Below are positions 1 through 34,738 of a stretch of DNA of 37,481 nt, in pieces. The position numbers and the translations under genes were made by a program. Source of the stretch: a virus (taxonomy: Duplodnaviria; Heunggongvirae; Uroviricota; Caudoviricetes); the IMG/VR virus record IMGVR_UViG_2534681936_000021, positions 1-37,481 of that record. One strand, given 5' to 3'. Positions within the stretch are counted from its first letter, which is position 1; each line of letters opens with the position of its first letter. Below the pieces are notes generated by a model. It was given only the letters and a program-made list of their open reading frames with translations. It was not told the DNA's origin and did no database searches.

Positions 1-1005
1 TTAATCCCCCGTGGACACTGCGTGGACACTTACGCCACCTTTCAGCGGATTAAGGGCCACCGCATCCTGCAGGTAATCCGGTGCAAAATGCGCATATGCC
101 ATTGTTTGCTGAATGGTTGCGTGACCAAGAATCTTCTGAAGCGCAATAATGTTTCCTCCGTTCATCACAAAATGGCTGGCGAACGTATGCCGCAGCACAT
201 GTGCAGCCTGGCCTTTTGGTAAATCGGGCTTAACTCTTTTCAGCGCCAGGCAGAATTCCCGGTACTTCACCTCAAACAAGCTGCCTGTTTCTCTGGTTTT
301 GATCGCCTCACAAACTGCCTGCGAAATTGGCACTGTTCTCTTCCGGCCATTTTTGGTTTCAAGAAACGTTACACGGTTATGAACTATCTGTTCACCACGA
401 AGCTTACAAGCTTCACTCCAGCGCGCCCCTGTGCTTAAACACAAAAGCGCAACACGCCAGTAGTCGCCCTCCAGTGTATCGAGCAATAGCGCCACTTCCT
501 TCTGTGACAGGAACGCCATTTCTCGTGGAGATACATAAAGAATAGAAATTCCCCTTACTGGATGTTCTGCATCCCAAAGACCTATTTTTTTCAGCACGGT
601 AAACATTCCGGATAACCGATTCATGTACCTGTTAGCAGATGACGGTTTCAATCCTTCAGCTATCTTTTGAGAACGCCACGCGATAATTTTCAGCTTATCA
701 AGATCCACAGCCTGCATATCAGCGCCAAGCTCATTAATTATGTTGCGCAGTTGTTTTCGGTCTTCTTCCGCCTTACGCCTGTGCTGGCCGTGATACATCC
801 ACCACAACTCAAGCAAATCATTTAGCGTTCGACGATCACGGTAGCCCTGTATATATTCCCGCTTTTCAGCGTTCGCCATGATGTAGCGTTCAGTGGCCAC
901 CGCTACCGATTTTTTGTCAAATACCTTACGCACGCGCTTTCCCTTGCGTCCGTTCGGCCTGATGTCCAGCAAATAACGACCATCTTCGAGCTTCTTAATC
1001 GACAT
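1..1005 (-). CDS. int: tyrosine integrase, P2 Int-like
   Basis: Translation from the ATG at 1005 begins MSIKKLEDGRY...; C-terminal catalytic region HVLRHTFASHF...GH...Y resembles P2 Int as recalled. The track ORF starts at an upstream TTG (1020). Confidence 0.9.
   Translation of the reverse strand: MSIKKLEDGRYLLDIRPNGRKGKRVRKVFDKKSVAVATERYIMANAEKREYIQGYRDRRTLNDLLELWWMYHGQHRRKAEEDRKQLRNIINELGADMQAVDLDKLKIIAWRSQKIAEGLKPSSANRYMNRLSGMFTVLKKIGLWDAEHPVRGISILYVSPREMAFLSQKEVALLLDTLEGDYWRVALLCLSTGARWSEACKLRGEQIVHNRVTFLETKNGRKRTVPISQAVCEAIKTRETGSLFEVKYREFCLALKRVKPDLPKGQAAHVLRHTFASHFVMNGGNIIALQKILGHATIQQTMAYAHFAPDYLQDAVALNPLKGGVSVHAVSTGD
10..29. repeat. candidate attL core (tandem cgtggacac units) inside the int 3' end
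   Basis: cgtggacactgcgtggacac matches 36300-36319 at 17 of 20 positions in direct orientation. Confidence 0.35.
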
Positions 1006-1101
1006 TACGAAGCCCTCCAATGAACCGCTCTACAATTTCTCCAGCCTCTTTCCAGCAATAATCAGACCAGACAAAAAGCAGGTCTAACCAGTTTTCTGGC
1101 C

Positions 1102-1422
1102 TCAGCGGGATAATTTTTGGATTGTTTCGGTTGAAACGCGATCTCCCTCCGAATTGCAGGAACCATCAAGAGAGAGAGCCGGAGAAATTTGCCCGACCTC
1201 CGGCATCGTTTCATCTGTTGATAACCAATAAGCATACTTCTTAAATTTAGGGTGTTTCGTAACCTTAAGTAAGGCACCCTCTGTTACTTGCTTCCCCCTC
1301 ACCTCATAGTTAGTTACCGTCCCATAAGGCAGCCCAACACAATCCGCAAACTCCTGGCGGGTCATACCTTCTGCTTCACGAATCAGGCGAAATTTTTCAC
1401 CCATGCTTGACAAAGATGCCAT
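1102..1422 (-). CDS. C: P2 C-type immunity repressor (start uncertain: ATG at 1422 or 1404)
   Basis: Segments GLPYGTVTNYE and EVGQISPAL resemble P2 C repressor as recalled; sits upstream of int on the same strand as in P2. Confidence 0.7.
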   Translation of the reverse strand: MASLSSMGEKFRLIREAEGMTRQEFADCVGLPYGTVTNYEVRGKQVTEGALLKVTKHPKFKKYAYWLSTDETMPEVGQISPALSLDGSCNSEGDRVSTETIQKLSR

Positions 1423-1476
1423 ATCGGGCACATCCTCCATCACAACATGCCACATCGGGCACAAACATAAAAACAC

Positions 1477-1535
1477 TCAAATAAGCCGATATAAGCCATT
1501 TTGAGCCATTCGAACGAATTAGGGAGATTACCACA
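1477..1535. promoter_or_regulatory. C/cox divergent promoter-operator region with direct repeats
   Basis: Repeated ataagcc and agccatt units between divergent C and cox starts; a P2-like lysis-lysogeny switch is expected here. Confidence 0.4.
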
Positions 1536-1823
1536 ATGAGCGAATCAGAGCTTGGGGGGTTCATTCAGGTAGCACCATATCCACTTGAAGCGGTGCCATA
1601 TCAACTATTCGCCAAGATGATCGGCCGCAAGGAATCCACAGTCAGAACCATGATTGACGCAGCAAAGCTACCGACAATTGACTTTGTGAAACCAGGTTCA
1701 GTAAAGACGCGTGCATCAGAAAACTGGGTATATCTGCCAGCATTTAACGAAGGCATGCGCAAAGCGTTTTTTGAGCAACCGAAAGAACGCCGCGACGCAT
1801 GGTTGTTGTGGCTGGGACTTTAG
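1536..1823 (+). CDS. cox: Cox-like excisionase / switch regulator
   Basis: 95 aa; PYQLFAKMIG...WVYLPAFN...WLLWLGL resembles P2 Cox; RBS agggag 10 nt upstream; divergent from C. Confidence 0.8.
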   Translation: MSESELGGFIQVAPYPLEAVPYQLFAKMIGRKESTVRTMIDAAKLPTIDFVKPGSVKTRASENWVYLPAFNEGMRKAFFEQPKERRDAWLLWLGL

Positions 1824-1829
1824 TCATAA

Positions 1830-2036
1830 ATGACCAGCCATATCATCAGCGCCATTCTGACCCTTGTTTTTATTGAGATAGGCGTAATAGAGATCTATTT
1901 GTTTCGCAAGTTAACGGGACATGAAGAACGCTTTATTGAACTCAGCATTGAATATATCGCCGCTTATACCAAAGGACTTTTCCCGGCAGCTATTGGGGCG
2001 ATGTTTATAGCGTTTGTTATCTGGTTTATCGGGTGA
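1830..2036 (+). CDS. small hydrophobic membrane protein (68 aa), unknown function
   Basis: ATG 7 nt after the cox stop; two predicted hydrophobic helices; lower GC than neighbours. Confidence 0.4.
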   Translation: MTSHIISAILTLVFIEIGVIEIYLFRKLTGHEERFIELSIEYIAAYTKGLFPAAIGAMFIAFVIWFIG

Positions 2037-2288
2037 GAAACCTGACAACCCACAACTACTGCAATGAGGGTAATTATGTGTGGCATGGACAAATTGGACC
2101 TTATGTTAATTGTAATACTATCAATTAACTTCGGTTACCTCTTAAGCGGCGCAATTCTCATGTGCGGAGGCAAACGAAAATGAACCAGCAGTCCGCAAAA
2201 CGTGAAAACAATGCGATGCGATTTAATCGCAAATATTTTGAGTTCGGCCTCTATGCCGGAATAATTAAATCTGTACAGAGTCTTTAAC

Positions 2289-2630
2289 ATGAAACAGCAA
2301 CGTAATTCACGCTTTCGCAATGGTGCAGAACGCCACGCTAACCGTTTTGCTACCAGTGCATCACGCAGCAACATCCGCTACAGCCTGAGTGATACACACG
2401 CAACGCCGGATGGCTACCCAGTAAAACAAATCGGCGAGCATGCCTGGCTGATTGAGAAAGCTGGAATCGTGATCCACAAATGCCCACGCAATCCGTTTAC
2501 CGGAAACCGCATTTTTGCTCTAAGCAGTGGCGACAATCAGTTCGGGCAGGATTTCACATTATACGAAGCACTTCGCACGGTTGATCGTCTGCTTCGCGGG
2601 CAAAGTTTTATTAAACAGGCTGATTTATAA
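2289..2630 (+). CDS. early-region hypothetical protein (113 aa)
   Basis: Clean ORF in the early rightward operon; no family recognised. Confidence 0.5.
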   Translation: MKQQRNSRFRNGAERHANRFATSASRSNIRYSLSDTHATPDGYPVKQIGEHAWLIEKAGIVIHKCPRNPFTGNRIFALSSGDNQFGQDFTLYEALRTVDRLLRGQSFIKQADL

Positions 2631-2640
2631 CAGGTGCTTT

Positions 2641-2928
2641 ATGACCAAAGACCATGCACAAGGTGTATTTATCCGTTTTATTGATTTTCGCGGTGAACTG
2701 TTATTACGTGCATCCGCTATTGACGGAGTGACTCCGGCGGGTAAAAACGGAGCCGACGAAGCCACTTACGTTTATCTGAACGGCACGCGACTGCTTCTGG
2801 AACTTCCGTACCAGACCGTACGAGAAATCATTAGCGAAGCTGAAAAGGCACGCCAGGCTAATGGCGATGAACCCTATATCGAAATTATTTGTATGGATTC
2901 AGAAGCTGAAATACAGAAAGCAGATTAA
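2641..2928 (+). CDS. early-region hypothetical protein (95 aa from the ATG at 2641)
   Basis: In-frame ATG at 2641 just after the upstream stop; the track ORF begins earlier at 2527 but overlaps the previous gene. Confidence 0.5.
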   Translation: MTKDHAQGVFIRFIDFRGELLLRASAIDGVTPAGKNGADEATYVYLNGTRLLLELPYQTVREIISEAEKARQANGDEPYIEIICMDSEAEIQKAD

Positions 2929-2936
2929 AGGGCGTT

Positions 2937-3182
2937 GTGATGGGCAAAGAATATAAAACTCTCATTAACAAAGCACTTGAGCGTTTTTATTTTCGCTTAA
3001 GTGCATCAGGCGCTCATGCTGAACGTGCGGCCCGTGACTCATTGACCAGAGCAATCCGAAGTCTGTATGACGTGGCTTTTTACGCTGATGATCTGGATGC
3101 ACTTAACGAACTTTCCGAGCTGATCTGTGCCGCAGAATGCGGGGAACATATTGAACCGTATAAGCTGGGGAATATCGCATGA
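2937..3182 (+). CDS. early-region hypothetical protein (about 80 aa)
   Basis: GTG-ATG start at 2937/2940 directly after the upstream stop. Confidence 0.45.
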   Translation: MMGKEYKTLINKALERFYFRLSASGAHAERAARDSLTRAIRSLYDVAFYADDLDALNELSELICAAECGEHIEPYKLGNIA

Positions 3183-3292
3183 GTATATTTATCTCATGGC
3201 TTGTTCTGATTATTTCGGTGGCCTGCGCTATTGGGATTATGCGAATTATTCATTCAATAAAAAAGATTGAACGTTTTTTCACTGGCGAATAA
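3179..3292 (+). CDS. possible 37-aa hydrophobic peptide (MSIFISWLVLIISVACAIGIM...), below the ORF-track size cutoff
   Basis: ATGA start/stop overlap with the upstream ORF; single predicted transmembrane helix. Confidence 0.3.
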   Translation: MSIFISWLVLIISVACAIGIMRIIHSIKKIERFFTGE

Positions 3293-3378
3293 CAGAGCAA
3301 ATAAAACCACAGATAAAATAAGAAAATGTAAAAACAATCCGCATTAGCGGAGGTATTCGCACACGCCAAGGAGGCGTA

Positions 3379-5084: not shown

Positions 5085-7943
5085 ATGACGGCAGAGTACA
5101 TCAGGGACTGGCAACAACCGCGCCACGCAGTGGGGCGTGAAGGAACGGGGATCCCCGTTCCTGAATCCGCGCTTTCCTCCTGGCTGGATGCCTACCGGGC
5201 AGAGAACGAGCGCCGCCAGGAAATGGCTGATGCGGCGTTCTCCGCCACGCCGCTGAGCAACCTGATTAATAAAAGCCTGGACGCACAGGAAAAACAGGAC
5301 AAAACCATCACACTGGCAGGAGACGCCAGAAAACAGGCACGCGGCGCGGTGGATGAAGCCATGGCCTCGCTGCGCCTGCTGCCGTCCTATCTGCGCGATC
5401 CGCTTATTCGCCACCTCTCCTTCCTGCGCAAAAAACAGGAAGCCGATCGCCGGAAAGGCAAAAAGAGCTGGCAGGCTGAACGCTACGCGCGCGGAACCCT
5501 GCGCAAAATATTCGAACGTCTGGACCGCACCGACCACCGCTGGCTGACACCGGGTTATCGCTCCCTTGCCGGACGCGAACGCCTGGATGATTTGCTTTAC
5601 CTGCCGCAGCTCAACCAGCACCAGATACAGACGCTGGCCACCATGACGGCGGCGATGTTCAGCAGCACCTTCGAAAAACTCTGCGATGGCTTTGGCGCGA
5701 CCGATGGCGAACTGACCATGGATGTAACGCTGAAGGCGTATCAGATGCTGGCCCGCATGGCGTTACACCTGCACGCCATGCCGCCACATTACGAAGCTCT
5801 GAACAAGAGCGATCCGGATACGGAACTGTTACCGGGCGCAATCCTTCGCCTGACCTGTGCGGAATGGTGGAAACGCAAACTGTGGCTGTTACGTTGCGAG
5901 TGGCGGGAAGAACAACTCCGCGCCGCCTGTCTGGTTTCCAAAAAAACATCGCCCTATCTGAGCCAGGACGCGTTAAGCGAGTTTCGCGCACAGCGCGAGA
6001 AAACACGCGATTTCCTGAAAAGTTTCATGCTGGAAAACGAAGACGGGTTCACGATTGATCTCGAGACAGTGTATTACGCGGGAGTAAGTAACCCGGTTCA
6101 CCGTAAGGCAGAAATGATGGCCACCATGAAGGGGCTGGAACTTCTGGCCGAAGCCCGTGGCGACAAAGCGGTGTTTCTGACCATCACCTGCCCGTCAAAA
6201 TACCACGCCACAACAGAGAACGGTCATCCGAATCCCAAATGGAACGGGGCCACCATGCGCGACTCCAGCGATTACCTGGTTAACACGTTTTTTGCGGCGG
6301 TCCGCAAGAAACTGAACCGCGACGGCCTGCGCTGGTATGGCATCCGCACAGTGGAGCCTCACCATGACGGCACCGTGCACTGGCATATGATGGTCTTTGC
6401 TCATCCGGAAGAAATCGACACCATTGTGTCCCACACCCGCGATATTGCCATTCAGGAAGATCGTCACGAGCTGGGTGATGATATTACCCCACGCTTTAAG
6501 GCGGAGTACGTCGACGGCTCAAAAGGCACGCCAACCAGCTACATCGCCACCTACATCGGAAAGAACCTGGACAGCCGCGCCGTAGATGGCATCGACCCGA
6601 AAACGGGCAAGCCACGCGTTGACCACGAAACCGGAAAATCGATGGCCGAGAGCGTGGAACGCGCCATCGGCTGGGCGCGCCTTCACCGTGTCCGCCAGTT
6701 CCAGTTCTTTGGTATCCCCTCCCGTCAGGTGTGGCGTGAACTCCGCCGCCTTGCCAGCCAGATGGCACGCAACCCGGAAGGCCCGCAACGGCTGAAGGAT
6801 GACGCAATGGATGCGGTACTCGCTGCCGCTGATGCCGGATGTTTTGCCACCTACATAGAGAAACAGGGCGGCGTACTTGTTCCACGCAAAGACTACCTGA
6901 TTCGCACCGCCTACGACCTCGCAGATGAGCTGAACGATTACGGCGAACAGAGCGTACAGATTTACGGGATCTGGTCACCACTCATCGGGGAATCCTCCCG
7001 TGTGTGCACGCATCCGGATAACTGGAAGCTGGTAAGACGCAAACCGGAAGCGGAAGACAGCGCCCGCGAAAATGGTTTTGACCTTCAGGGCGCCCCTGCC
7101 GCCCCTTGGACTCGTGGCAATAACTGTCCCCGTATACAGGAAACGGGCAACAACGGGACAGAACAGCCGGAAGAACGGCCAGCACCGTGGCCGCAGCTTC
7201 CTGACGGCGTTGACGTGAATGAATGGATGCGCTCACTGAAACGGCACGAACACCGGGCGCTGATGCGTTCGCTGCGTGACAAACAGGCAAAAAACAGCAG
7301 TGATGAAATGCAGAACTGGACACAGAGCCGCAAACAGCCACAGCCTTTGCCTGATAACCACGAGTTACTCGCTAAAGAATGGCGGGAGTCTGCTGAATCT
7401 CTCGGCCTGCATATCGGTGAACAGCAGATGCAGCACCTGTTACGGGGCGGCAGTCTGTACGTTGACGGCAGCATCATTGCACCGCAGGGATTTGAAATTG
7501 TACGCAAACCGGATACCCGCCCGGACAGCCGAATCACGCAGCTCTGGCAACGCCTGAGCCGTAATCACGGCGTAAGCAGCACGGAGATCCGCCATAACCC
7601 GGTCGCCAGCTATCTGGAACAGCTGGGGGCATCAGACCCCGAAGCCGCCACACGCCTGGAATCCACACTTCAGCAGGACCAGAACACCATGAAAACCCCC
7701 GTTACCGTGCTTTCTGACATGCTGTGCGCCATCCGTGACGCAGAGCACGCACAGAGAATCAGTGAAACCACTGAACGCGCCCGCCGCAAAGCAGACCTGC
7801 TGCGGGGTAGCCTGACCAGTGGAAACAAAAAACAGACAGAAACGGGACTCACAAATCCCGTAAATGAGCAAAAACGTGCCGCGATATATGAAGCGCGCAC
7901 AAAACAGGCAAAAGCGGGATTTAAAAATCCTGTAACCGATTAA
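5085..7943 (+). CDS. A: replication initiation endonuclease, P2 gpA family (rolling-circle HUH nickase), 952 aa
   Basis: HUH-like motif EPHHDGTVHWHMMVF and tyrosine motif YIATYIGK in the translation; position after the early genes as in P2. Confidence 0.9.
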   Translation: MTAEYIRDWQQPRHAVGREGTGIPVPESALSSWLDAYRAENERRQEMADAAFSATPLSNLINKSLDAQEKQDKTITLAGDARKQARGAVDEAMASLRLLPSYLRDPLIRHLSFLRKKQEADRRKGKKSWQAERYARGTLRKIFERLDRTDHRWLTPGYRSLAGRERLDDLLYLPQLNQHQIQTLATMTAAMFSSTFEKLCDGFGATDGELTMDVTLKAYQMLARMALHLHAMPPHYEALNKSDPDTELLPGAILRLTCAEWWKRKLWLLRCEWREEQLRAACLVSKKTSPYLSQDALSEFRAQREKTRDFLKSFMLENEDGFTIDLETVYYAGVSNPVHRKAEMMATMKGLELLAEARGDKAVFLTITCPSKYHATTENGHPNPKWNGATMRDSSDYLVNTFFAAVRKKLNRDGLRWYGIRTVEPHHDGTVHWHMMVFAHPEEIDTIVSHTRDIAIQEDRHELGDDITPRFKAEYVDGSKGTPTSYIATYIGKNLDSRAVDGIDPKTGKPRVDHETGKSMAESVERAIGWARLHRVRQFQFFGIPSRQVWRELRRLASQMARNPEGPQRLKDDAMDAVLAAADAGCFATYIEKQGGVLVPRKDYLIRTAYDLADELNDYGEQSVQIYGIWSPLIGESSRVCTHPDNWKLVRRKPEAEDSARENGFDLQGAPAAPWTRGNNCPRIQETGNNGTEQPEERPAPWPQLPDGVDVNEWMRSLKRHEHRALMRSLRDKQAKNSSDEMQNWTQSRKQPQPLPDNHELLAKEWRESAESLGLHIGEQQMQHLLRGGSLYVDGSIIAPQGFEIVRKPDTRPDSRITQLWQRLSRNHGVSSTEIRHNPVASYLEQLGASDPEAATRLESTLQQDQNTMKTPVTVLSDMLCAIRDAEHAQRISETTERARRKADLLRGSLTSGNKKQTETGLTNPVNEQKRAAIYEARTKQAKAGFKNPVTD

Positions 7944-7967
7944 TTATTCAACATAAGGAAAAGCGAC

Positions 7968-8927
7968 ATGAAAATTTGTATCGATGACGGCTCCACCAAC
8001 ATCAAGCTGGCATGGACTGAGAACGGCGAACGCCGCAACGCCATCAGCCCAAACAGCTTCAAGTCGGAATGGTCTGCGCCGTTCGGTGGCACGCAGCCCG
8101 CGAACTACATGCTTGATGGCGTGCGCTATGGTTTTGATCCGGTCAGCGATCGCTTTGTCCAGACGACCGACACGCAATACCAGTACAGCGATGTGAATGT
8201 CATTGCTATTCATCACGCGCTGGTCAAATCAGGCATCACACCACAGGAAGTGGATGTGGTTGTCACCCTGCCACTGAGCGAATATTTCGACACAAACGCA
8301 CAGCCGGACATGGTCAACATCAACCGCAAAAAAGCGAACGTCATGCGCCCGGTGGAGTACCAGAACGGCGAAGCATTCACTATCCGTAACGTACGGGTTA
8401 TGCCTGAATCCATTCCGGCTGGCTTTAAAGCACTGGCTGACATGAGTCCGTTTGAATCCCTGCTGATTGTGGATTTGGGCGGAACCACGCTGGATGTGGC
8501 AAAGGTTCAGGGGCAACTGGCAGGTATCAGCCAGGTGTTTTGCGATCCACACGTAGGCGTTTCTCTGATGGCCGATGCCGTACTGTCGGTGATGGCCACT
8601 AACGGTATGCGCACCAGTCACCACATCGCCAATACCATTATCGAACGTCGCCATAATGAAGCCTGGCTGCGCCAGCACATCCACAATGACGCGCATTACG
8701 CCAGCCTGATGGCGGTTATTCGTGAAAAGGAAGAAACACTGAAACAACGCGTGATCCGCGCGCTGGCGGGTTTTTCGGGTTACGGGCGGGTGATGGTTGT
8801 CGGTGGAGGGGCGGAGATTGTGGCACCCGCTATCCGCGAAGCCTGCGGAGTTAATGCGACTTTCATCGCGGACGGGGTGCCACAGTTTGCTCTGGTTAAT
8901 GGGCTGTACGCAATGGACAAGGAGTAA
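7968..8927 (+). CDS. parM: ParM/StbA-family actin-like ATPase
   Basis: N-terminus MKICIDDGSTNIKLAW plus YSDVNVIAIHHAL, VMPESIPAGF, LIVDLGGTTLDV and VMVVGGGAE closely parallel plasmid R1 ParM as recalled. Confidence 0.85.
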   Translation: MKICIDDGSTNIKLAWTENGERRNAISPNSFKSEWSAPFGGTQPANYMLDGVRYGFDPVSDRFVQTTDTQYQYSDVNVIAIHHALVKSGITPQEVDVVVTLPLSEYFDTNAQPDMVNINRKKANVMRPVEYQNGEAFTIRNVRVMPESIPAGFKALADMSPFESLLIVDLGGTTLDVAKVQGQLAGISQVFCDPHVGVSLMADAVLSVMATNGMRTSHHIANTIIERRHNEAWLRQHIHNDAHYASLMAVIREKEETLKQRVIRALAGFSGYGRVMVVGGGAEIVAPAIREACGVNATFIADGVPQFALVNGLYAMDKE

Positions 8928-8931
8928 ACCA

Positions 8932-9243
8932 ATGACAACACCAACCAGACGGATAAGTTTCTATCTGAAGCCAGCTGCCGTCAAGAACGAAGGAGAAGCA
9001 TGCGCCTGGCTGGACAGCCTTACACCAGAAGCCCGCAAAAGCGGCCAACGCGTGGCTTTTCTGGCCGGGCTGGCACTTCTGAAGACGAATCCGGCAGAGG
9101 CTTACCGACTGGCCGCATGGGCTGATGATGAGATGTTACCTGTGACACAAATCAGCTCAAAAAAGTTTGAAGCACAGTCTGCACCAGTGGCTAAGATAAC
9201 CAGCCAGATGGCTGGGAATATCCGGGCGTTATTTCCTGAGTAA
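8932..9243 (+). CDS. parR: ParR-like small DNA-binding partner (103 aa)
   Basis: RBS aaggag upstream, 4 nt after the parM stop; N-terminus RRISFYLKP and LAGLALL segment resemble R1 ParR as recalled. Confidence 0.6.
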   Translation: MTTPTRRISFYLKPAAVKNEGEACAWLDSLTPEARKSGQRVAFLAGLALLKTNPAEAYRLAAWADDEMLPVTQISSKKFEAQSAPVAKITSQMAGNIRALFPE

Positions 9244-9284
9244 AAGCATCTGCGCGAAAAATGCTCACGTTTATAGAGACAGTA

Positions 9285-9430
9285 TCATTCCATTTGGCAC
9301 ACTTACTTCAATAATCGATCTGTTAAACAAATAGATTGTCTATTATCTATCGATTAAAACGATCAATTATCTTGACAGTAATGTGCCTTTTTGTAAGATC
9401 GTTCGCATTGTGAGCGACAAGATAATTGCG
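9285..9430. repeat. iteron-like repeat cluster (four CGATC/TCGAT cores; inverted repeat caattatcttg / caagataattg)
   Basis: Seen directly in the sequence downstream of parR; candidate centromere or operator. Confidence 0.35.
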
Positions 9431-9448
9431 CGGCATTGTCCATGCAAA

Positions 9449-9478
9449 ACGCCCCAATAGCAGCAACTATTGGGGCGT
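9449..9478. other. perfect 12-bp stem hairpin (acgccccaatag / ctattggggcgt)
   Basis: Perfect inverted repeat with a 6-nt loop, flanked by AAAA on one side. Confidence 0.5.
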
Positions 9479-9505
9479 AAAACTCGGTCGGACTCACTTA
9501 ACCTG

Positions 9506-9590
9506 ATATGCGTGCCTTCCGAAGTAAATCAAAATGTGCGTCGTATATTTTATTGCTTACACGCACCTCTGTAAAGGCACGCATATTTTT
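9506..9590 (+). promoter_or_regulatory. nested palindromes plus T-run immediately upstream of the 89-aa ORF (attenuator/terminator-like leader)
   Basis: 13-bp perfect inverted repeat atatgcgtgcctt / aaggcacgcatat enclosing an inner gtgcgt/acgcac pair, followed by TTTTT and then the RBS. Confidence 0.4.
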
Positions 9591-9607
9591 CCTATGAGGT
9601 AAATAAA

Positions 9608-9877
9608 GTGCGGGCTAAAACAGGTATTTGCAAGAACCCTCATCGTTATAATCCAACATTTCTGTCTCTCCCTGAATATCAAGGACAAGAAGGTCGGCAC
9701 AAATGCGCTGCCTGTGCTTTTGAGCTAGGCATAAAAGATGCGCTTGAAGGACGCGCTATGGCTCAGAATGATTTAGTTTTAGCTAACATTCCGTTTAGCC
9801 AGGCTGGAACTGTAAGGCACAGAGATGCCTATGAAGCATATGTTCGTGGTTGGCGATTAATACACAGCAACAATTGA
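9608..9877 (+). CDS. hypothetical 89-aa protein (GTG start)
   Basis: RBS gaggt 7 nt upstream; ORF followed directly by an intrinsic terminator; no family recognised. Confidence 0.4.
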   Translation: MRAKTGICKNPHRYNPTFLSLPEYQGQEGRHKCAACAFELGIKDALEGRAMAQNDLVLANIPFSQAGTVRHRDAYEAYVRGWRLIHSNN

Positions 9878-10438: not shown

Positions 10439-10963
10439 ATGGTCATTAATTACAAGCAGTTAAGAGAAAAACGGGAGCAGGTAAAGGAGAGCTTTCGCCG
10501 CAATGAAGATCTGACCCCGCTTGTACGCCTTGCCCAGGGCATTGTTGATGCTTATGAAATCTCGCTGGAGCTGCCATCACAGACCTGGACAGATAGCGAC
10601 GGTAATCGCCAGCATTACGTTTCATGCGGACTGGAAGCAGCCGAAGGATTTCGCAGAATGCCTTTATCCCAGATCCCTGCCGCTACCCCCAAAGCACGAG
10701 GCAGCAATGATGAGCGAAAACTGACTTTTAGTATTGAAACGGTGGTTGACGACACACCTGGCGAAGTCGCGTTCGTGCACACTCCTGTTTCGATCGCAAT
10801 GTATAACGATGAAATACAGGTTCGCGTTAATAATAATATCGTGCCACTTAAAGAAGGTAATTCACCCTACACCACCGTTTGTGAAGCCATTCAATATTAC
10901 GTTCTCTCTGAAATTGATAATCTCAAGCCTGACGGCACCCAGAAAATGGTTCAACTCTGGTAA
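10439..10963 (+). CDS. hypothetical 174-aa protein, unknown function
   Basis: RBS ggagg 8 nt upstream of the ATG at 10439; ends at the bidirectional terminator shared with Q. Confidence 0.5.
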   Translation: MVINYKQLREKREQVKESFRRNEDLTPLVRLAQGIVDAYEISLELPSQTWTDSDGNRQHYVSCGLEAAEGFRRMPLSQIPAATPKARGSNDERKLTFSIETVVDDTPGEVAFVHTPVSIAMYNDEIQVRVNNNIVPLKEGNSPYTTVCEAIQYYVLSEIDNLKPDGTQKMVQLW

Positions 10964-22261: not shown

Positions 22262-23892
22262 CAGTGAAATACTACGCCATTCTGACTAATCAGGGCGCAG
22301 CACGACTGGCTAACGCGACGATGCTCGGCAGTAAGCTGAATCTGACGCAAATGGCCGTTGGTGATGCAAATGGTGTGTTACCAACACCAGACCCTGCACA
22401 AACAAAACTGATTAACCAGAAACGCATTGCACCGCTGAATCTTCTGAGTGTTGACCCTAACAATCAGAGCCAGATTATTGCGGAGCAAATCATCCCTGAA
22501 AACGAGGGAGGATTCTGGATCCGTGAGATTGGTCTTTATGATGATGAAGGTGTACTCATTGCGGTGGCAAACTGCCCGGAAACGTACAAACCGCAGTTGC
22601 AGGAAGGCAGTGGACGCACCCAGACTATCCGCATGATTCTGGTTGTCACGAACACCGAAGCCATCACGCTGAAAATCGACCCGTCTGTGGTTCTGGCAAC
22701 CCGCAAATATGTGGATGATAAAATATCAGAGCACGAACAGTCACGACGTCACCCGGACGCCTCGCTGACCGTAAAAGGTTTTACTCAGTTAAGCAGTGCA
22801 ATTAACAGTGAATCAGAAACACTGGCCGCAACACCGAAAGCGGTTAAGGCTGCATATGACCTGGCTAACGAGAAATATACCGCCCAGAACGCCACCACTA
22901 CACAAAAAGGGATTGTTCAGCTCAGTAGCGCCACGAACAGCACGTCTGAAACACTGGCAGCGACACCAAAAGCTGTTAAGGCGGTAATGGATGAAACGAA
23001 CAAGAAAGCACCATTAAACAGCCCGGCACTGACCGGAACGCCAACAACACCAACAGCGCCACAGGGGACTAATAGTACCCAGATCGCAAGCACGGCTTTC
23101 GTTATGGCCGCGATTGCCGCACTTGTAGATTCGTCACCTGATGCACTGAACACGCTGAACGAACTGGCTGCGGCGCTGGGCAATGACCCGAATTTTGCGA
23201 CCACCATGACTAACGCGCTTGCGGGTAAGCAACCGAAGGATGCCACCCTGACGGCGCTGGCGGAGCTTGCTACATCAGCAGATAAACTCCCATATTTTAC
23301 AGGGGCAGATCGTGCCGCGTTAACCGCGTTGACAAGTGTTGGACGTGCCATTCTTGGTAAAACCAGCACTCAGGGAGTTCTTGATTACCTTGGTTTGGGA
23401 GAAGGTTCGGCATTACCCGTTGGTGTGCCTGTTCCGTGGCCTTCCGCCACTCCGCCAACAGGCTGGCTGAAATGCAATGGTGCGGCTTTTTCTGCTGAAG
23501 AATACCCGGAACTGGCAAAGGCTTATCCAACAAATAAATTACCTGATTTACGCGGTGAGTTTATTCGTGGATGGGATGATAGTCGTGGTATCGACAACGG
23601 GCGTGCGCTGCTTTCATCTCAAGGCCATTCACTCAGAGACCACTCACATAACCAGCAGATCTGGACAGGTTCAAATACAACATCGTCAACTATTGGTCAG
23701 GCCGGGAGTTATGCTCCGCTAGCAACTGGAGGGGATGGGGGGATTGCCTATACTGACCGGGAGCCTCAAAGCCTACCTTCAGCAGTAAGAGCTGTCAGCA
23801 CTCGTGGGGTTGCTTCTGACAATGCAGCGAATATTGGCACTGAAACCCGCCCGCGCAACATTGCATTTAACTACATCGTGAGGGCTGCATAA
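22258..23892 (+). CDS. H: tail fibre protein gpH-like; constant N-terminal part fused to variable C-terminus 1
   Basis: 544 aa; internal SETLAATPKAVKA repeats; the left inversion crossover site lies at codon 377-378. Confidence 0.85.
   Translation: MTVKYYAILTNQGAARLANATMLGSKLNLTQMAVGDANGVLPTPDPAQTKLINQKRIAPLNLLSVDPNNQSQIIAEQIIPENEGGFWIREIGLYDDEGVLIAVANCPETYKPQLQEGSGRTQTIRMILVVTNTEAITLKIDPSVVLATRKYVDDKISEHEQSRRHPDASLTVKGFTQLSSAINSESETLAATPKAVKAAYDLANEKYTAQNATTTQKGIVQLSSATNSTSETLAATPKAVKAVMDETNKKAPLNSPALTGTPTTPTAPQGTNSTQIASTAFVMAAIAALVDSSPDALNTLNELAAALGNDPNFATTMTNALAGKQPKDATLTALAELATSADKLPYFTGADRAALTALTSVGRAILGKTSTQGVLDYLGLGEGSALPVGVPVPWPSATPPTGWLKCNGAAFSAEEYPELAKAYPTNKLPDLRGEFIRGWDDSRGIDNGRALLSSQGHSLRDHSHNQQIWTGSNTTSSTIGQAGSYAPLATGGDGGIAYTDREPQSLPSAVRAVSTRGVASDNAANIGTETRPRNIAFNYIVRAA
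22790..22990 (+). repeat. in-frame tandem repeat in the tail fibre (two copies of the SETLAATPKAVKA-containing unit)
   Basis: Repeated peptide in the H translation. Confidence 0.5.
23378..23403. promoter_or_regulatory. left crossover site for the DNA invertase (gix/hix-like, 26 bp: ttcttgattacc-tt-ggtttgggagaa)
   Basis: 12-bp half-sites around a 2-bp core; inner half plus core is the exact reverse complement of 25254-25267. Confidence 0.65.
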
Positions 23893-24494
23893 TGACACAG
23901 GCAAAATTAAACAGTGAATTTATTGCCACAGTAGCGGGTGATATTACCGTCTATAACTATGACAACACGACACGGGAATACATTTCATCATCAACAGAAT
24001 ATCTTGCCGTTGGCGTCGGTATCCCGGCATGTTCTTGTTTAGATGCACCAGTTACACATAAAGCTGGTTATGCAATCTGCCGTTCTGCAGATTTTAACTC
24101 ATGGGAATATGTACCAGACCATCGCGGTGAAATCATCTATAGCACCGAAACAGGAGAATCGAAAGAAATCACAGCTCCGGGTGATTACCCTGAAAATACA
24201 ACCACTATCGCCCCGTTAACGCCATTCGATAAATGGGATGGTGAGAAATGGGTGACGGATACCGAGGCACAGCATAGCGCCGCACTAGACGCGGCAGAAG
24301 CAAAGCGCCAGTCGCTGATTGATGCTGCAATGGCTTCCATCAGTCTGATTCAGATGAAATTACGGGCCGGGCGGAAGCTGACGCAGGCAGAAACCACCCG
24401 ACTTAACGCTGTGCTGGATTACATTGACGCGGTGGAGGCAACAGATACCAGCACCGCGCCTGATGTCATCTGGCCTGAACTGCCGGAGGCGTAG
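23892..24494 (+). CDS. G: tail fibre assembly chaperone gpG-like (copy 1)
   Basis: 200 aa; C-terminal WPELPEA-type tail typical of fibre assembly proteins; follows H. Confidence 0.8.
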   Translation: MTQAKLNSEFIATVAGDITVYNYDNTTREYISSSTEYLAVGVGIPACSCLDAPVTHKAGYAICRSADFNSWEYVPDHRGEIIYSTETGESKEITAPGDYPENTTTIAPLTPFDKWDGEKWVTDTEAQHSAALDAAEAKRQSLIDAAMASISLIQMKLRAGRKLTQAETTRLNAVLDYIDAVEATDTSTAPDVIWPELPEA

Positions 24495-24906
24495 GCCATT
24501 CAATATCTGGCGCACCGGAAGTATCGACCAGTTCCAGTGCGTCCAGATAATCCAGCCACAAATTATATTGCGCCAGTTCCCCACCTTTCAGGCGACCAAT
24601 CGCCGCTTTACCAGGCCATTGCTTACTGTTTATGTATTCGTTGACCTGATTAATCAATTGCTGCTTTTCCAGTTCGGCTGCGGCAATTTGTTCCTCATGA
24701 GTTGGCGGTGGAGTATCAATCCATGCAGGCATTCCGTCGATGACACCTCTGTATTTTCCTTCTGGTGCTTCCTTCATAAATTCGGCGGCAACAGTGTCGT
24801 CAATTTCGATTCCATCACCGGGCCATTCGCCGGATTCCTGATAAGCGATTTTAAGCTCCACAGGGAAAAACGCATTTTTATCGGCACTGAAAATATATTT
24901 CTGCAT
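24466..24906 (-). CDS. tail fibre assembly chaperone, alternative copy (G')
   Basis: 146 aa, convergent with and overlapping G by 29 bp; similar C-terminal motif (DIEWPTPP). Confidence 0.75.
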   Translation of the reverse strand: MQKYIFSADKNAFFPVELKIAYQESGEWPGDGIEIDDTVAAEFMKEAPEGKYRGVIDGMPAWIDTPPPTHEEQIAAAELEKQQLINQVNEYINSKQWPGKAAIGRLKGGELAQYNLWLDYLDALELVDTSGAPDIEWPTPPAVQAR

Positions 24907-24908
24907 TT

Positions 24909-25307
24909 CTACCGTCCTATCGAAATATAACTGAATCTGTATTGCTGTGAGATATCACTGGTTGCCACACGCCACGCTGAATTACTGATATGTTCAAAAT
25001 TTACAGACAAAACCTGCGGGGCAGGATTCGACGGGGCTGACTGAACGGCATCAGACATAACACTGACTGAAACCATCGGCTGATTAGGGAATGGTATAGG
25101 GAAGTGTCCACTGATAAAGCGGGTCGTGTTTCCTGAAAAAGTGCCAAACTGAACAATATATCCACCTGGTAGCCTGAACCATCCCGAACCAGAAGCGAAT
25201 GCTCCCATATCCGGTATCTGATTATCTCCTGTGCCCACATTCCGTTTTGCCGCTTCTCCCAAACCAACGTTTAAGAAAATGCAGAGATTATGGCTAACTG
25301 GCATCAT
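24909..25307 (-). CDS. alternative tail fibre C-terminal segment (Hv'); functional only when fused to the H N-terminus by inversion
   Basis: Frame is continuous with the crossover core at 25265; translation after the core (GLGEAAKRNVG...) parallels H after its core (GLGEGSALPVG...). Confidence 0.6.
   Translation of the reverse strand: MMPVSHNLCIFLNVGLGEAAKRNVGTGDNQIPDMGAFASGSGWFRLPGGYIVQFGTFSGNTTRFISGHFPIPFPNQPMVSVSVMSDAVQSAPSNPAPQVLSVNFEHISNSAWRVATSDISQQYRFSYISIGR
25254..25279. promoter_or_regulatory. right crossover site for the DNA invertase (ttctcccaaacc-aa-cgtttaagaaaa)
   Basis: Inverted partner of 23378-23403; lies 56 bp upstream of the invertase gene. Confidence 0.65.
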
Positions 25308-25334
25308 CCCCGGTTTTTATTCAGGGGATCCATC

Positions 25335-25934
25335 ATGCTTATTGGCTATGTCCGCGTATCAACAAATGACCAGAATACAGAATTGCAGCGTAACGCGCTG
25401 GAGTGCGCAGGATGTGAACTGATTTTTGAAGATAAAATCAGCGGAACGAAATCAGCCAGACCGGGATTGAAAAAACTGATCAGAACGCTATCAGAAGGAG
25501 ATACGCTGGTTGTCTGGAAGCTGGACAGACTGGGCAGAAGTATGAAACACCTGATCACGCTTATTGAGGAATTGCGGGAAAAAGGTGTTAATTTCCGTAG
25601 TCTGACGGACAGCATTGACACATCAACACCCATGGGGCGTTTCTTTTTTCACGTCATGGGGGCTTTAGCCGAAATGGAACGTGAATTAATTGTAGAGCGT
25701 ACACTGGCCGGGCTGGCAGCAGCACGCGCACAAGGACGCATTGGCGGACGTCGCCCGAAGTTGACAAAAGAACAACACGAGCAAATAGCGAGGCTGATTA
25801 AAAACGGTCATGACAGGAAACAACTGGCGATCATTTACGACATCGGCATATCGACGATTTATCGTTATCACCCTGTAGGCGATATACAGGCTGAAGAAAC
25901 AACCAGGCAGACTCAGGAAAATGAAAACCGCTAA
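25335..25934 (+). CDS. serine DNA invertase (Gin/Hin/Pin/Cin family)
   Basis: N-terminus MLIGYVRVSTNDQNTELQ with the catalytic serine context; resolvase-type fold and C-terminal helix-turn-helix (GISTIYRY). Confidence 0.9.
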   Translation: MLIGYVRVSTNDQNTELQRNALECAGCELIFEDKISGTKSARPGLKKLIRTLSEGDTLVVWKLDRLGRSMKHLITLIEELREKGVNFRSLTDSIDTSTPMGRFFFHVMGALAEMERELIVERTLAGLAAARAQGRIGGRRPKLTKEQHEQIARLIKNGHDRKQLAIIYDIGISTIYRYHPVGDIQAEETTRQTQENENR

Positions 25935-25953
25935 TCTGACCATTAGCGGTTTT
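25924..25953. terminator. hairpin between the convergent invertase and U genes (aaaaccgctaat / attagcggtttt)
   Basis: 12-bp perfect stem spanning the invertase stop; short T-run on both sides. Confidence 0.45.
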
Positions 25954-31536: not shown

Positions 31537-31693
31537 AGCTTCAGCCCCTTGTATCCGTTAAATGATTCGGCAACAATCATCACCCACCACGCGCGTAATC
31601 TCACTCCTGCGCCGTTCTCCCGCCACGGCGACAACAAAAAGCAGTAACCCCCTCCGCACGCACATGCGACCATGCCGCACAGGGAGGGAACAG

Positions 31694-32802
31694 ATGACCG
31701 ACACCACCATGCAATTGCTCAGTCAGGGCACAGACCCCGTGAAAATGCCGGATTTTGATATTCTCGCGGAGGGTAAAACGCTGTCAGGCGTGGCAGAGCG
31801 CCTGATGAGCCTGTCACTGACCGACAACCGGGGATTTGAAGCGGACCAGCTCACCATCACGCTGGATGATGCGGATGGTCAGTTGCAGCTACCGCCACGG
31901 GGCGCGCGCCTGACGGTTCTCATTGGCTGGAAAGGAGAACCGCTGACAGAAAAAGGCACTTACATTGTTGATGAAATCGCTCACGAAGGACCGCCGGACA
32001 GGCTGACTGTTTCAGCCAGAAGCGCAGATTTTCGGGATGAATTTAACGTTAAACGTGAGGTGTCCTGGCATGATGTGACCGTTGAGCGTGTGGTATCCGC
32101 CATCGCTCATCGGTACGGTCTGAAACCGCAAATCAGCGAAATGCTGATGGATATCGAAATCGACCACGCCGACCAGACCGAAGAAAGCGACATGTCCTTC
32201 CTTACGCGCATGGCGGAAATGCTGGGCGCAATCACCACGGTAAAAAGCGGCAATCTGTTATTCATCATGCCTGGTGGTGGCGTGAACGCACAGGGCCAGC
32301 CGTTGCCCTCGTTCGCCATTACACGCAGCAGTGGCGATCGCCATCAGTTCCGCATTGCTGACCGCGAGGCGTATACGGGTGTACGCGCCTACTGGCTTGA
32401 TCTTAATTACGGGAAAAAGAAAAAGTCAGCGTGAAACGCCGCAAACCGCCAAAACCCAAAAAGGAGAAAAGCAGCAGCCGTGAAGGTGATTATATGGAAG
32501 GCGCGGAAGGCAATGTGTTTGTGTTACGCAAGACTTATCAGAACGAGCAGGCAGCAAGACGCGCAGCGGCGGCAAAGTGGCAGCAGCTACAACGCGGAGC
32601 CGCATCATTCTCCATCATGCTGGCACGCGGACGCGCAGAACTCTACCCCGAAATGCATGGCACGGTAACAGGCTTTAAAAGCGAGATTGATAATCAGGAC
32701 TGGATTATTGCAAAAGCCGAGCACACCATTGATAACAGCGGCTTTACCACACAGCTTGAGCTTGAGGCAAAAATCCCGGAATGGATAGCAGAAACAGAGT
32801 GA
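31694..32802 (+). pseudogene. D: late control / tail protein gpD-like, split by a single-base frameshift in the gggaaaaagaaaaag run (about 32411-32430)
   Basis: Track ORFs ending at 32434 and starting at 32431 together give a gpD-like protein (...SWHDVT..., ...GDRHQF..., ...QDWIIAKAEH...SGFTTQLELE...). Confidence 0.75.
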
Positions 32803-32922: not shown

Positions 32923-33945
32923 TTAATACGCATTTAATTTAAATTTGTATTTGCCTTCTATGTAATGGATAAATTCAATTATGCTTTTTTCTATCGCATC
33001 TAATATATGAATATATCCATCCCGATTTAAGGTCCTATCCAACTCAAAGTGATGAACTATCCCATGTCTATATTGTATGATTTCAGAAATTCGATTCTCA
33101 AGAAAATCAACTGATTTTCCAATTCTTTTTTTCTTATAAAGAATCGCTCTCACATCTATATCCAGCCACTCTTTATATGCTTTGTTTAGGTGGGTTAAGT
33201 TTTGAAAAGTGTAATTTCTTGCAATAACACTTTCTATTGAAATATTTCCTTTCTCTATCTCAAGCAGAATATCAAAATCAACTTTTTGCTTATACGATGT
33301 TCTTTTTGCTATTGCGAAAGGATCGTACTTTATAAGTATTTGAAAAGCTCTAGAGAAAAAATATTCAAACATAGCAACCGCAAAAGGTACTAATCCATTA
33401 TATATAACTCTACTGGGATCCATACATTGCATGTAATCAAAGTATTCGGATAAGCCGCCATCTTCCGGTAGGTTTAATTTAATAGAAGGTTCAGGTAAGG
33501 CATGTTTAACAGCGGAAATCTCATGATGGACATGATTAAATATTGAAGAAATGCCACGACTGATCGGACTACTAGAATCCTTCCATAGAGGAGCGTACCT
33601 ATTTTTCCCATAATCACCTATAAGTGTTCCACCAAAAAGACTCCGTGCGCCTTTTAGAACATCATTAAGCATTTTTACATCATGCCAACTAGCGCTATAT
33701 AAATTACGCACATGCAATGCCCATTTATTACCAGATATGTGTAGTTCGTCATTTGAAACAGGATATATATCAGCCGAAACTCCATCTGTAGATTTGAAGT
33801 CCGTATCATCAAACCAAGAGTAATTCAACGTTCCTTGGGGCCATTCCCACAAATGTTTACACCTTTTAAAACCTAAATTTTCAAGGTAATTTTTAAGTTC
33901 GTTTCTAGTTGCTTTTTTAGGGTACAGCGTTATATCTCTTCCCAT
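32923..33945 (-). CDS. hypothetical 340-aa protein in an AT-rich insertion; C-terminal Rx4HH motif (candidate HEPN-like abortive-infection protein)
   Basis: Long clean ORF in markedly AT-rich DNA between D and ogr; motif YRHGIVHHFE near the C-terminus. Confidence 0.6.
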   Translation of the reverse strand: MGRDITLYPKKATRNELKNYLENLGFKRCKHLWEWPQGTLNYSWFDDTDFKSTDGVSADIYPVSNDELHISGNKWALHVRNLYSASWHDVKMLNDVLKGARSLFGGTLIGDYGKNRYAPLWKDSSSPISRGISSIFNHVHHEISAVKHALPEPSIKLNLPEDGGLSEYFDYMQCMDPSRVIYNGLVPFAVAMFEYFFSRAFQILIKYDPFAIAKRTSYKQKVDFDILLEIEKGNISIESVIARNYTFQNLTHLNKAYKEWLDIDVRAILYKKKRIGKSVDFLENRISEIIQYRHGIVHHFELDRTLNRDGYIHILDAIEKSIIEFIHYIEGKYKFKLNAY

Positions 33946-34136: not shown

Positions 34137-34397
34137 ATGTTCCGTTGTCCGCTTTGTGGCGCATCTGCCCGTATCCGCACAAGTCGTCCGGAAAATGATT
34201 CAAACACCGTGCGGCAAAAGTATTACCAGTGTAACAATCTGGAATGCGGCGTATGCTTCTCAACACTGGAAGCTTTCCATAAATTCACATCGAAACACGC
34301 CTCCGGCGTTCACTCTTCAGAAGGTATCCCGTGGCATGAGCTACCAGCTTCACACAGGGGAAACAATCAGATGAGTTTGCCTTTACCTCAGAATTAA
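34137..34397 (+). CDS. ogr: Ogr/Delta-family zinc-finger late transcription activator
   Basis: MFRCPLCGA...CNNLEC zinc-finger pattern typical of P2 Ogr; RBS agggagg upstream. Confidence 0.8.
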   Translation: MFRCPLCGASARIRTSRPENDSNTVRQKYYQCNNLECGVCFSTLEAFHKFTSKHASGVHSSEGIPWHELPASHRGNNQMSLPLPQN

Positions 34398-34588: not shown

Positions 34589-34729
34589 TGTCGCAAAAAT
34601 CGCTTACAGCCATCACGTTCTGCGTGACGGTAATCCTCATCATCTGGATGTTGCACGGTTCGCTGTGCGAAATACGGATGAGTTTCTGGGGAGCGGAGTT
34701 TGCGGCGTTCTTACAGTGTAAGCAGTAAG
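34589..34729 (+). CDS. Hok/Gef-family type I toxin (46 aa), below the ORF-track size cutoff
   Basis: MSQKSLTAITFCVTVILIIWMLHGSLCEIR...AEFAAFL: transmembrane helix followed by the Hok-like SLCEIR and E(F/V)AAF motifs; RBS aaggag 8 nt upstream. Confidence 0.6.
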
Positions 34730-34738
34730 GAAACCGCG

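Follow-up and report, generated by a model that had tools for sequence, protein, structure and literature searches.

The 37,481-nt stretch of DNA analysed here in full (IMG/VR record IMGVR_UViG_2534681936_000021, hereafter the window) is an integrated P2-like prophage, with genes for integrase, Cox, the replication endonuclease gpA, portal, terminase and tail lying between the host genes pdxB and flk. By DNA identity it falls among the P88-like phages (genus Xuanwuvirus, family Peduoviridae); positions 7900-9600 are 100% identical to NZ_CP065607.1 (Escherichia coli FDAARGOS_946), whose annotation agrees with the open reading frames (ORFs) of the window. Directly after gene A, which encodes gpA, stand two genes, parM and parR, homologous to the actin-type (type II) partition genes of plasmid R1. 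On balance we favour the reading that positions 7826-9243 form a complete, selectively maintained ParMRC-type cassette, near-core in P88-like phages, which acts on transient extrachromosomal circles of phage DNA.

A preliminary description of the window, made from the sequence alone, had proposed homologues of ParM and ParR in an integrase-bearing P2-like prophage at 7968-9243. Database searches bear this out, and the coordinates are exact, running from the parM start to the parR stop. The gene pair is real, yet it has already been annotated and remarked on in print and is not new. RefSeq names the products 'plasmid segregation protein ParM' and 'plasmid partitioning/stability family protein', and the PHROGs 'partition protein' families phrog_691 and phrog_2515 cover both genes. 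Rousset et al. (2022) reported a putative partition system in about a quarter of P2-like phages and suggested plasmid maintenance (PMC9122126). The phiSM paper listed the cassette as a 'fitness' gene (PMC6456863); neither that paper nor the P88 genome paper analysed it.

The parM and parR genes

The parM gene (7968-8927, plus strand) encodes an actin-like segregation ATPase of 319 aa, which matches the R1 ParM structures over its full length (PDB 1mwk_A, E=7.1e-91, residues 2-316) and carries the Pfam domains StbA_N (5.6e-82) and ParM C-terminal (3.3e-67). It is 46% identical to an IncF R1-type ParM from end to end and keeps the motifs IDDGSTNIKL (phosphate-1), MPESIPAG (catalytic), DLGGTTLD (phosphate-2) and GGGAE; the phosphate-1, catalytic Glu, phosphate-2 and adenosine motifs that characterize a type II ATPase are all present.

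The parR gene (8932-9243, plus strand) encodes a putative centromere-binding adaptor of 103 aa. Its ATG at 8932 lies 4 nt past the parM stop, with a ribosome-binding site AAGGAG ahead of it, and parR is closely coupled to parM in translation. The program-made ORF list holds a 148-aa ORF starting with TTG at 8797; we rejected it as parR and took the ATG as the start. The product belongs to Pfam family PF10784 (Plasmid_stab_B, StbB/ParR; E=9.8e-24) as well as to phrog_2515, and is 34% identical to the R1-type ParR over 56 residues of the N-terminal domain (residues 6-61). A small adaptor gene immediately after parM is thus found, as in other type II loci; the ribbon-helix-helix (RHH) fold itself was not confirmed. 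An AlphaFold2 monomer built from a 12-sequence alignment had a mean confidence (pLDDT) of 52.6 and was left unused for fold search; in this model residues 87-100 are predicted, with low confidence, to be helical.

Both ends of ParR are strongly conserved. The segment TRRISFYLKP near the N-terminus is unchanged in 66 of 67 ParR sequences; by analogy it would be the RHH strand that reads DNA. The C-terminal motif NI(R/Q)xLFPE, here GNIRALFPE, is kept in every ParR allele and aligns with the C-terminus of plasmid ParRs. In R1 the ParR C-terminus binds ParM, as seen in the structure of ParM with a ParR peptide. Between the conserved termini the linker is variable (∼55% identity), and the alleles are only 54-66% identical overall. 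There are at least three of them: the linker and C-terminal half have been swapped, with the N-terminal strand and C-terminal motif held constant. The breakpoints fall at ∼8986 (parR codon 18) in one group of relatives and exactly at the parR stop (9243) in another.

Comparison of parM with ten relatives gave ratios of nonsynonymous to synonymous substitution rates (dN/dS) of 0.05-0.19; against a Hafnia prophage, dS was 0.58 and dN 0.027. Strong purifying selection acts on this gene. P2-like prophages of at least eight genera have this pair of genes in the same place, their ParMs being as little as 53% identical, and 70 of the 75 contig-complete copies of the cassette (93%) are intact. The other five are disrupted, as could be expected if the pair had once been acquired by recombination with a plasmid and were now an inert, hitch-hiking relic. 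One example of decay is contig L047 (IMG/VR 2874920711_000009, 500-3300), where the end of gene A and the distal of the two repeat units described below have given way to an IS66-family insertion, and a frameshifted parM is left with 91 ParM-matching residues in a 110-aa ORF. Selection on parM, the large majority of intact copies and the preserved ParR termini together exclude a decaying relic; that explanation is effectively refuted by the selection analysis, and we regard it as extremely improbable.

Repeat units upstream of parM

The preliminary description had stated that no centromere fits upstream of parM, as gene A ends only 24 bp before it. The distance is literally correct for the window but peculiar to copies with a shortened A-run. 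An alignment with seven relatives, together with a set of 58 unique upstream sequences, revealed that the run at 7870-7874 (plus strand) has five A's, one fewer than in most relatives. Because this 1-nt deletion shifts the frame, gene A here reads on to a TAA at 7941-7943, whereas in most relatives, which have six A's, it stops ∼76 nt before parM; in more distant relatives the non-coding DNA before parM measures 44-183 bp. The run length alternates between A5 and A6, rarely A7, and A5 is also seen in a few other copies (u18, u44). As a consequence gpA has 952 aa here vs 940 aa in P88, its last residues being replaced or extended by the frameshift. Since the length of the gpA C-terminus varies with a homopolymer, its extreme end is apparently dispensable. 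Scans of the window, and of P88 too, for plus-strand terminators and consensus sigma-70 promoters were negative for the stretch from gene A to parM.

The DNA in question does contain a candidate centromere or operator, parC-like, at 7826-7967 (plus strand), which in this copy coincides in part with the 3′-end of gene A, lengthened here by the frameshift, and would make up the left edge of a mobile par cassette. It comprises two units. The distal unit (7826-7863) consists of an A-rich flank and the 20-bp palindrome ACGGGACTCACAAATCCCGT (7842-7861), and the proximal unit (7898-7935) of an A-rich flank and the palindrome GCGGGATTTAAAAATCCTGT (7914-7933). The units form a 38-nt direct repeat with the palindromes 72 bp apart, each palindrome having the form ACGGGATT-N4-AATCCCGT. 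This pattern occurs twice in the window, at these places and nowhere else; two or more matches were seen in none of 100 shuffled sequences. Both units are kept in the 58 unique upstream sequences. A GATTAAT box (7938-7944, plus strand), whose columns are invariant in a five-lineage alignment, follows the proximal unit and precedes the ribosome-binding site of parM, AAGGA (7955-7959, plus strand).

Comparison with more distant prophages shows where the conserved block begins. Identity between E. coli and Hafnia copies is 50-60% through the end of gene A and rises to ∼80-95% from ∼7824 onward. In an IMG/VR contig, L083, the replication protein is only 32% identical to gpA, yet the same units precede the same parMR, and homology starts abruptly at ∼7826. 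This contig, with its unrelated gpA, shows the ∼140 bp before parM (7826-7967) to be inherited together with parMR and not with gene A. Two further P2-like prophages, from Plesiomonas (L139) and a second Hafnia (L140), have ParM proteins 61-63% and ParR proteins 36-39% identical to those of the window; their ParRs keep TRR(I/V)SFYL, and upstream both retain two GGG-N10-CCC units at the spacing of ∼72 bp. The GGG and CCC triplets are invariant columns of the five-lineage alignment, the core of the distal unit reading GGGA...CCC throughout, and the conserved cores are separated by 72-73 bp. In P2-like prophages of Serratia and Enterobacter the ParR N-terminus reads NRKISFYLKP, and the upstream DNA has different inverted repeats of 14-20 nt; ParR N-terminus and upstream repeats thus appear to co-vary in a small but consistent way.

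The comparisons indicate that the GGG-N10-CCC units are tied to the par genes rather than to gene A. Since the Hafnia, L083 and Plesiomonas/second Hafnia copies agree in this, we place the cassette at 7826-9243, with 7826-7967 as the likely candidate parC. The earlier statement that no centromere fits upstream is therefore not supported.

The units could also be read as tandem minus-strand terminators, insulating against leftward transcription that arrives from the hotspot or the late genes, with ParMR using some other site or no dedicated centromere at all. On the minus strand each unit is an 8-bp GC-containing stem followed by a T-rich tract; a terminator scan flags both units in P88 and the distal one in the window. 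The hairpins fold at -10.5 and -11.3 kcal/mol (z ∼ -2.5), and several relatives have minus-strand genes just past parR. In L139 and L140, however, the inner arms are not complementary (e.g. GCGGGACAACAAAAACCCG, a 4-bp stem with a 10-nt loop), and the Plesiomonas units are unable to form a stable hairpin, while the triplets and the ∼72-bp spacing are retained. Further, the 58 unique upstream sequences revealed no compensatory changes, any minus-strand gene is at least 1.3 kb off on the far side of parMR, and the units are inherited along with parM instead of gene A. We consider this explanation fairly unlikely. The pattern in L139 and L140 agrees more with a site bound by protein than with a hairpin, though one role does not preclude the other.

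Three additional observations did not inform the choice. To see whether the palindromes could be the P2 ori, the P2 nick-site sequence was searched for and nothing was found, which is uninformative given that gpA has diverged. Wobble-compatible substitutions in the palindromes, counted by eye in order to tell an RNA hairpin from a DNA site, were ∼6 on one strand vs 4 on the other, a count equally uninformative because every transition is wobble-compatible on one strand. A weak signal of A-tract phasing at 7820-7930 was not relied on.

Chromosomal location, the downstream hotspot and gene order

We found the cassette in 1303 of 5426 complete E. coli genomes (∼24%), in up to three copies per genome. 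Nearly all places in these genomes (1449 of 1451) are chromosomal. This bears on the proposal, made by Rousset et al. (2022; PMC9122126) and offered as one option in the preliminary description, that the cassette enables these phages to remain free plasmid prophages over many generations. It is, by the homology of ParM and ParR, a bona fide plasmid-type partition system. Plasmid partition genes are known on phage genomes that live as plasmids: P1 and N15 carry ParAB/Sop, the P1-like phage-plasmid D6 carries an R1-type (StbA-type) ParM that is 47.5% identical to the window ParM, and the P2-like Burkholderia phage KS14, with RepB and ParA, is a proven plasmid prophage and thus an example of P2-type virion modules going together with life as a plasmid (PMC3091744). 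Also, one complete P88-like genome, circular and 34,461 bp long, has been deposited as plasmid pZ1323PEC0009-2.

Closer consideration of these records argues the other way. Seven PLSDB records match the cassette: pZ1323PEC0009-2 is the only circular one of phage size, five are very large (megaplasmid- or chromosome-sized) and one is a linear Shigella fragment. A 6-kb segment of the early region of the pZ1323PEC0009-2 phage has a 99.9% identical chromosomal match in another strain. The Shigella boydii 26.7-kb 'plasmid' was rejected as evidence of an episome, being a linear, degraded prophage fragment ridden with insertion sequences. The records 'Escherichia phage 520873' and '503458' were rejected as well; the former, the one of the two that was inspected, is linear, an excerpt of a prophage that includes flanking host DNA (yecA) and in which genes are frameshifted.

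A phage-plasmid is a free replicon with plasmid-type replication and usually no integration. D6, P1, N15 and KS14 are plasmid replicons held outside the chromosome; the window copy and its relatives, in contrast, are integrated and keep integrase (intact in the window copy) and Cox, and the replication gene is of the P2 gpA rolling-circle type by Pfam. KS14 has exchanged gpA for RepB and ParA; the P88-like phages retain the gpA replicon. In P2, expression of gpA accompanies lytic development, which likewise counts against plasmid upkeep. A permanent plasmid lifestyle is not supported, and long-term maintenance as a free plasmid prophage seems to us very doubtful.

The wider distribution of ParM agrees with an association with integrating phages. 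Plasmid ParMs in PLSDB are at most 52% identical to it, and plasmid ParRs were not found at all by tblastn at E<1e-3. Among 50,697 phage records this type of ParM occurs only in Xuanwuvirus and in phage-plasmid D6. All four examined ParM relatives of 53-63% identity sit between gpA and the portal gene in P2-like prophages of other genera; two examined relatives at 52% are in plasmid or other non-phage contexts. The association of this ParM with P2-type phages is thus old, recurrent, fixed in position and compatible with integration. A ParM search of genome contigs returned three near-identical loci only. One locus, L003 (NZ_JBQPOM010000071.1), carries a 97% identical E. coli-type P88-like cassette on a 226-kb contig labeled Vagococcus sp.; the label is probably due to assembly contamination.

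The gpA-gpQ interval, in which the cassette lies, is a defence and accessory hotspot of P2 phages (PMC9122126). One could speculate that parMR of a resident prophage acts on other targets, be it through partition incompatibility that destabilises incoming plasmids or phages with the same centromere, through anti-phage defence or through the host chromosome, and so contributes to lysogenic conversion or competition. Diversification of the ParR linker is what competition-driven genes often exhibit, up to three copies per genome are tolerated, and the 'fitness' label in the phiSM paper (PMC6456863) points in the same direction. Within the interval, however, the cassette is the conserved part beside gene A. 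parMR is 94-99% identical among relatives, and variability of the kind seen in defence loci starts only past the parR stop. The units upstream of parM, like the presumed DNA-binding segment at the ParR N-terminus, show no diversification but are invariant; there is no consensus promoter ahead of parM; and PADLOC, a search for known anti-phage defence systems, gave no match for ParM, ParR or the two neighbouring ORFs. Since plasmid ParRs escaped the tblastn search, a specificity shared with known plasmids is unlikely. We therefore judge a role in lysogenic conversion or competition to be unlikely.

Among relatives that share parMR at >94% identity, similarity is lost with the very first base past the parR stop, and the true variable hotspot starts only after this codon. 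For the same reason we ruled out the repeats at 9285-9430, which the preliminary description had named as possible ParR targets, as a centromere. These repeats surround a sigma-70-like promoter (9372-9399, plus strand), bracketed by an inverted repeat (9364-9374/9418-9428) and faced by a convergent minus-strand promoter (9575-9547). A strong hairpin of 12 bp, rich in GC (9449-9478), has the form of a terminator on the minus strand. The segment 9244-9600 is a separate small regulatory cargo cassette, whose elements would give an antisense RNA of ∼95 nt; in Rfam the hairpin has only sub-threshold matches (sar, ctRNA). The cassette is shared only with phage 520873 and a minority of E. coli genomes.

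The 9244-9600 segment leads into a hotspot ORF of 89 aa (9608-9877, phrog_3941), which is followed by one of 174 aa (10439-10963, phrog_5091). Neither has a match in Pfam, NCBIfam or PADLOC, the NCBIfam search giving weak sub-threshold matches only. In the Serratia and Enterobacter prophages (L141, 7450-8084; L142, 7411-8757) a HicAB toxin-antitoxin pair or a KAP-family NTPase gene comes after parMR, and the layout is therefore the same, a conserved par cassette and then a variable hotspot.

The rest of the prophage has the gene order of a P2-like phage. The integrase gene (1-1005, minus strand) is at the left end, with the repressor and Cox genes to its right, and then the rightward early operon, which ends in gene A (5085-7943, plus strand; Pfam Phage_GPA, 4e-131). 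Directly after parM and parR comes a 1.7-kb stretch of small ORFs. To the right of it lie the portal and terminase genes, read leftward, and the genes for P2 head, lysis and tail functions; ogr comes next, and then host DNA.

A DNA invertase gene ('recombinase family protein', ∼25336-25935) adjoins opposed tail-fibre assembly genes (23892-24494, plus strand; 24466-24906, minus strand), and the region 23892-25935 looks like an invertible host-range segment of the Gin/Cin type. A gene D-like late or tail gene is seemingly split into overlapping ORFs (31562-32434 and 32431-32802), where RefSeq has a partial coding sequence, and a 340-aa minus-strand ORF with no assigned function (32923-33945) lies between it and ogr (34137-34397). 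The prophage may be defective. Right of ogr, close to the prophage end, RefSeq annotates a Hok/Gef family toxin gene (34590-34730), beyond which there are a zinc-ribbon gene and a frameshifted TagO gene.

A possible role on transient phage circles

The preferred reading, a partition cassette for transient circles, could work as follows. No terminator or recognisable promoter separates gene A from the cassette directly after it, so parMR would be co-expressed with gene A. As the distal part of the early replication operon, it would be made after infection or induction, at the time when the genome is extrachromosomal. The gpA protein of P2 yields monomeric double-stranded circles, which would thus be natural substrates for a ParMRC system. 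ParR dimers would bind the two GGG-N10-CCC units, 72 bp apart, by means of the N-terminal RHH strand TRRISFYLKP, and the conserved C-terminal helix of ParR would capture the ends of ATP-ParM filaments. The growing filaments would then push apart ParR-bound phage DNA molecules or sister circles. The role would be to distribute or position transient circles, not to keep up a permanent plasmid prophage. Two kinds of pay-off can be considered: an unintegrated or excised genome may be kept in both daughter cells at division, or the replication and packaging of phage DNA may be organised in space. The two functional options named in the preliminary description, an episomal phase and a repurposed cytoskeletal role, were in this respect the right ones.

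The order of elements is that of ParMRC (StbAB) of plasmids R1 and R100, with repeats, parM and parR following each other. ParM is of the same kind throughout its length, ParR is of the same family (PF10784), the homology extending to the N-terminal domain and to the C-terminal motif, and even the parM leader is similar (CATAAGGA). Differences are also evident. The carrier here is an integrating P2-like phage, the cassette region overlaps the end of a replication gene, and ParR is shorter, with 103 aa compared with 116-147 aa in the plasmid ParRs examined. The parC of R1 has a clear promoter with a block of five direct iterons, each of ∼11 bp, on either side, whereas here there are two ∼20-bp units and no consensus promoter.

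The assertion that type II loci are features of plasmids or phage-plasmids proved too narrow, as actin-type modules have been studied experimentally both in SXT/R391 integrative and conjugative elements (ICEs; PMC4489591) and in the Corynebacterium prophage CGP3 (PMC4446434). SrpMRC of the SXT/R391 ICEs belongs to a normally integrated element, stabilises its transient excised circle and is expressed only with the functions for excision, replication and transfer (Carraro et al. 2015, PMC4489591). It appears to be the best functional analogue of the P88-like cassette and would illustrate the first kind of pay-off. Still, SrpM is distant from R1 ParM, no ParR domain can be recognised in SrpR, the element is conjugative and not viral, and the function was demonstrated there, whereas for the phage cassette we infer it.

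The AlpAC/alpS system of prophage CGP3 would be a parallel for the second kind: it is induced early and connects filaments with circular phage DNA, and phage DNA replication is not complete without it (Donovan et al. 2015, PMC4446434). Like the P88-like cassette it resides in an integrated prophage and pairs an actin-like protein with a co-transcribed DNA-binding adaptor, which in CGP3 binds repeats upstream of the operon. Unlike it, CGP3 has an actin-like protein of an unrelated family, the adaptor gene comes first, the repeats are short and number 24, and the effect observed was a two-fold drop in replication, not a partition defect.

Several considerations weigh against a partition cassette for transient circles. 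The candidate centromere consists of two units and lacks an iteron array, R1-type parC having about ten direct iterons; and in E. coli both units also resemble minus-strand intrinsic terminators. The co-variation of ParR N-terminus and upstream repeats involves two groups only. It is possible that a weak internal promoter between the units leads to expression of parMR in the lysogen. In a neighbour-joining tree (with no support values) phage ParMs fall into at least two clades, and a single ancient phage-specific origin is not established. What partition would bring to a genome whose fate is integration or lysis of the cell is not obvious, and a functional study of this cassette was not found in the literature.

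A broader statement can be made more tentatively, and we hold it to be plausible but somewhat short of probable: P2-type temperate phages of Enterobacterales, in at least two deep lineages, have made a ParMRC system part of the early replication module, with a minimal two-site centromere that lies at the end of the replication gene or overlaps it, and this system separates or positions the circles produced by gpA. If true, this would be an unusually small type II centromere.

For annotation the finding carries a warning, that 'ParM/ParR' on a contig is not evidence of a plasmid or phage-plasmid. It is modest as a discovery; the phage concerned integrates, is present in a quarter of E. coli strains and has an actin-type segregation machine that is under selection. 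If phage circles are indeed segregated or positioned by it, the P88-like phages would offer, in E. coli, a simple and genetically tractable case of a temperate phage whose development includes a cytoskeletal step, comparable steps being so far known only from the large prophage CGP3 in Corynebacterium, the tubulins of jumbo phages and ICEs. A short, actively partitioned 'plasmid phase' would then raise the fidelity of lysogenisation, or the yield of replication and packaging, in phages resident in about a quarter of E. coli strains.

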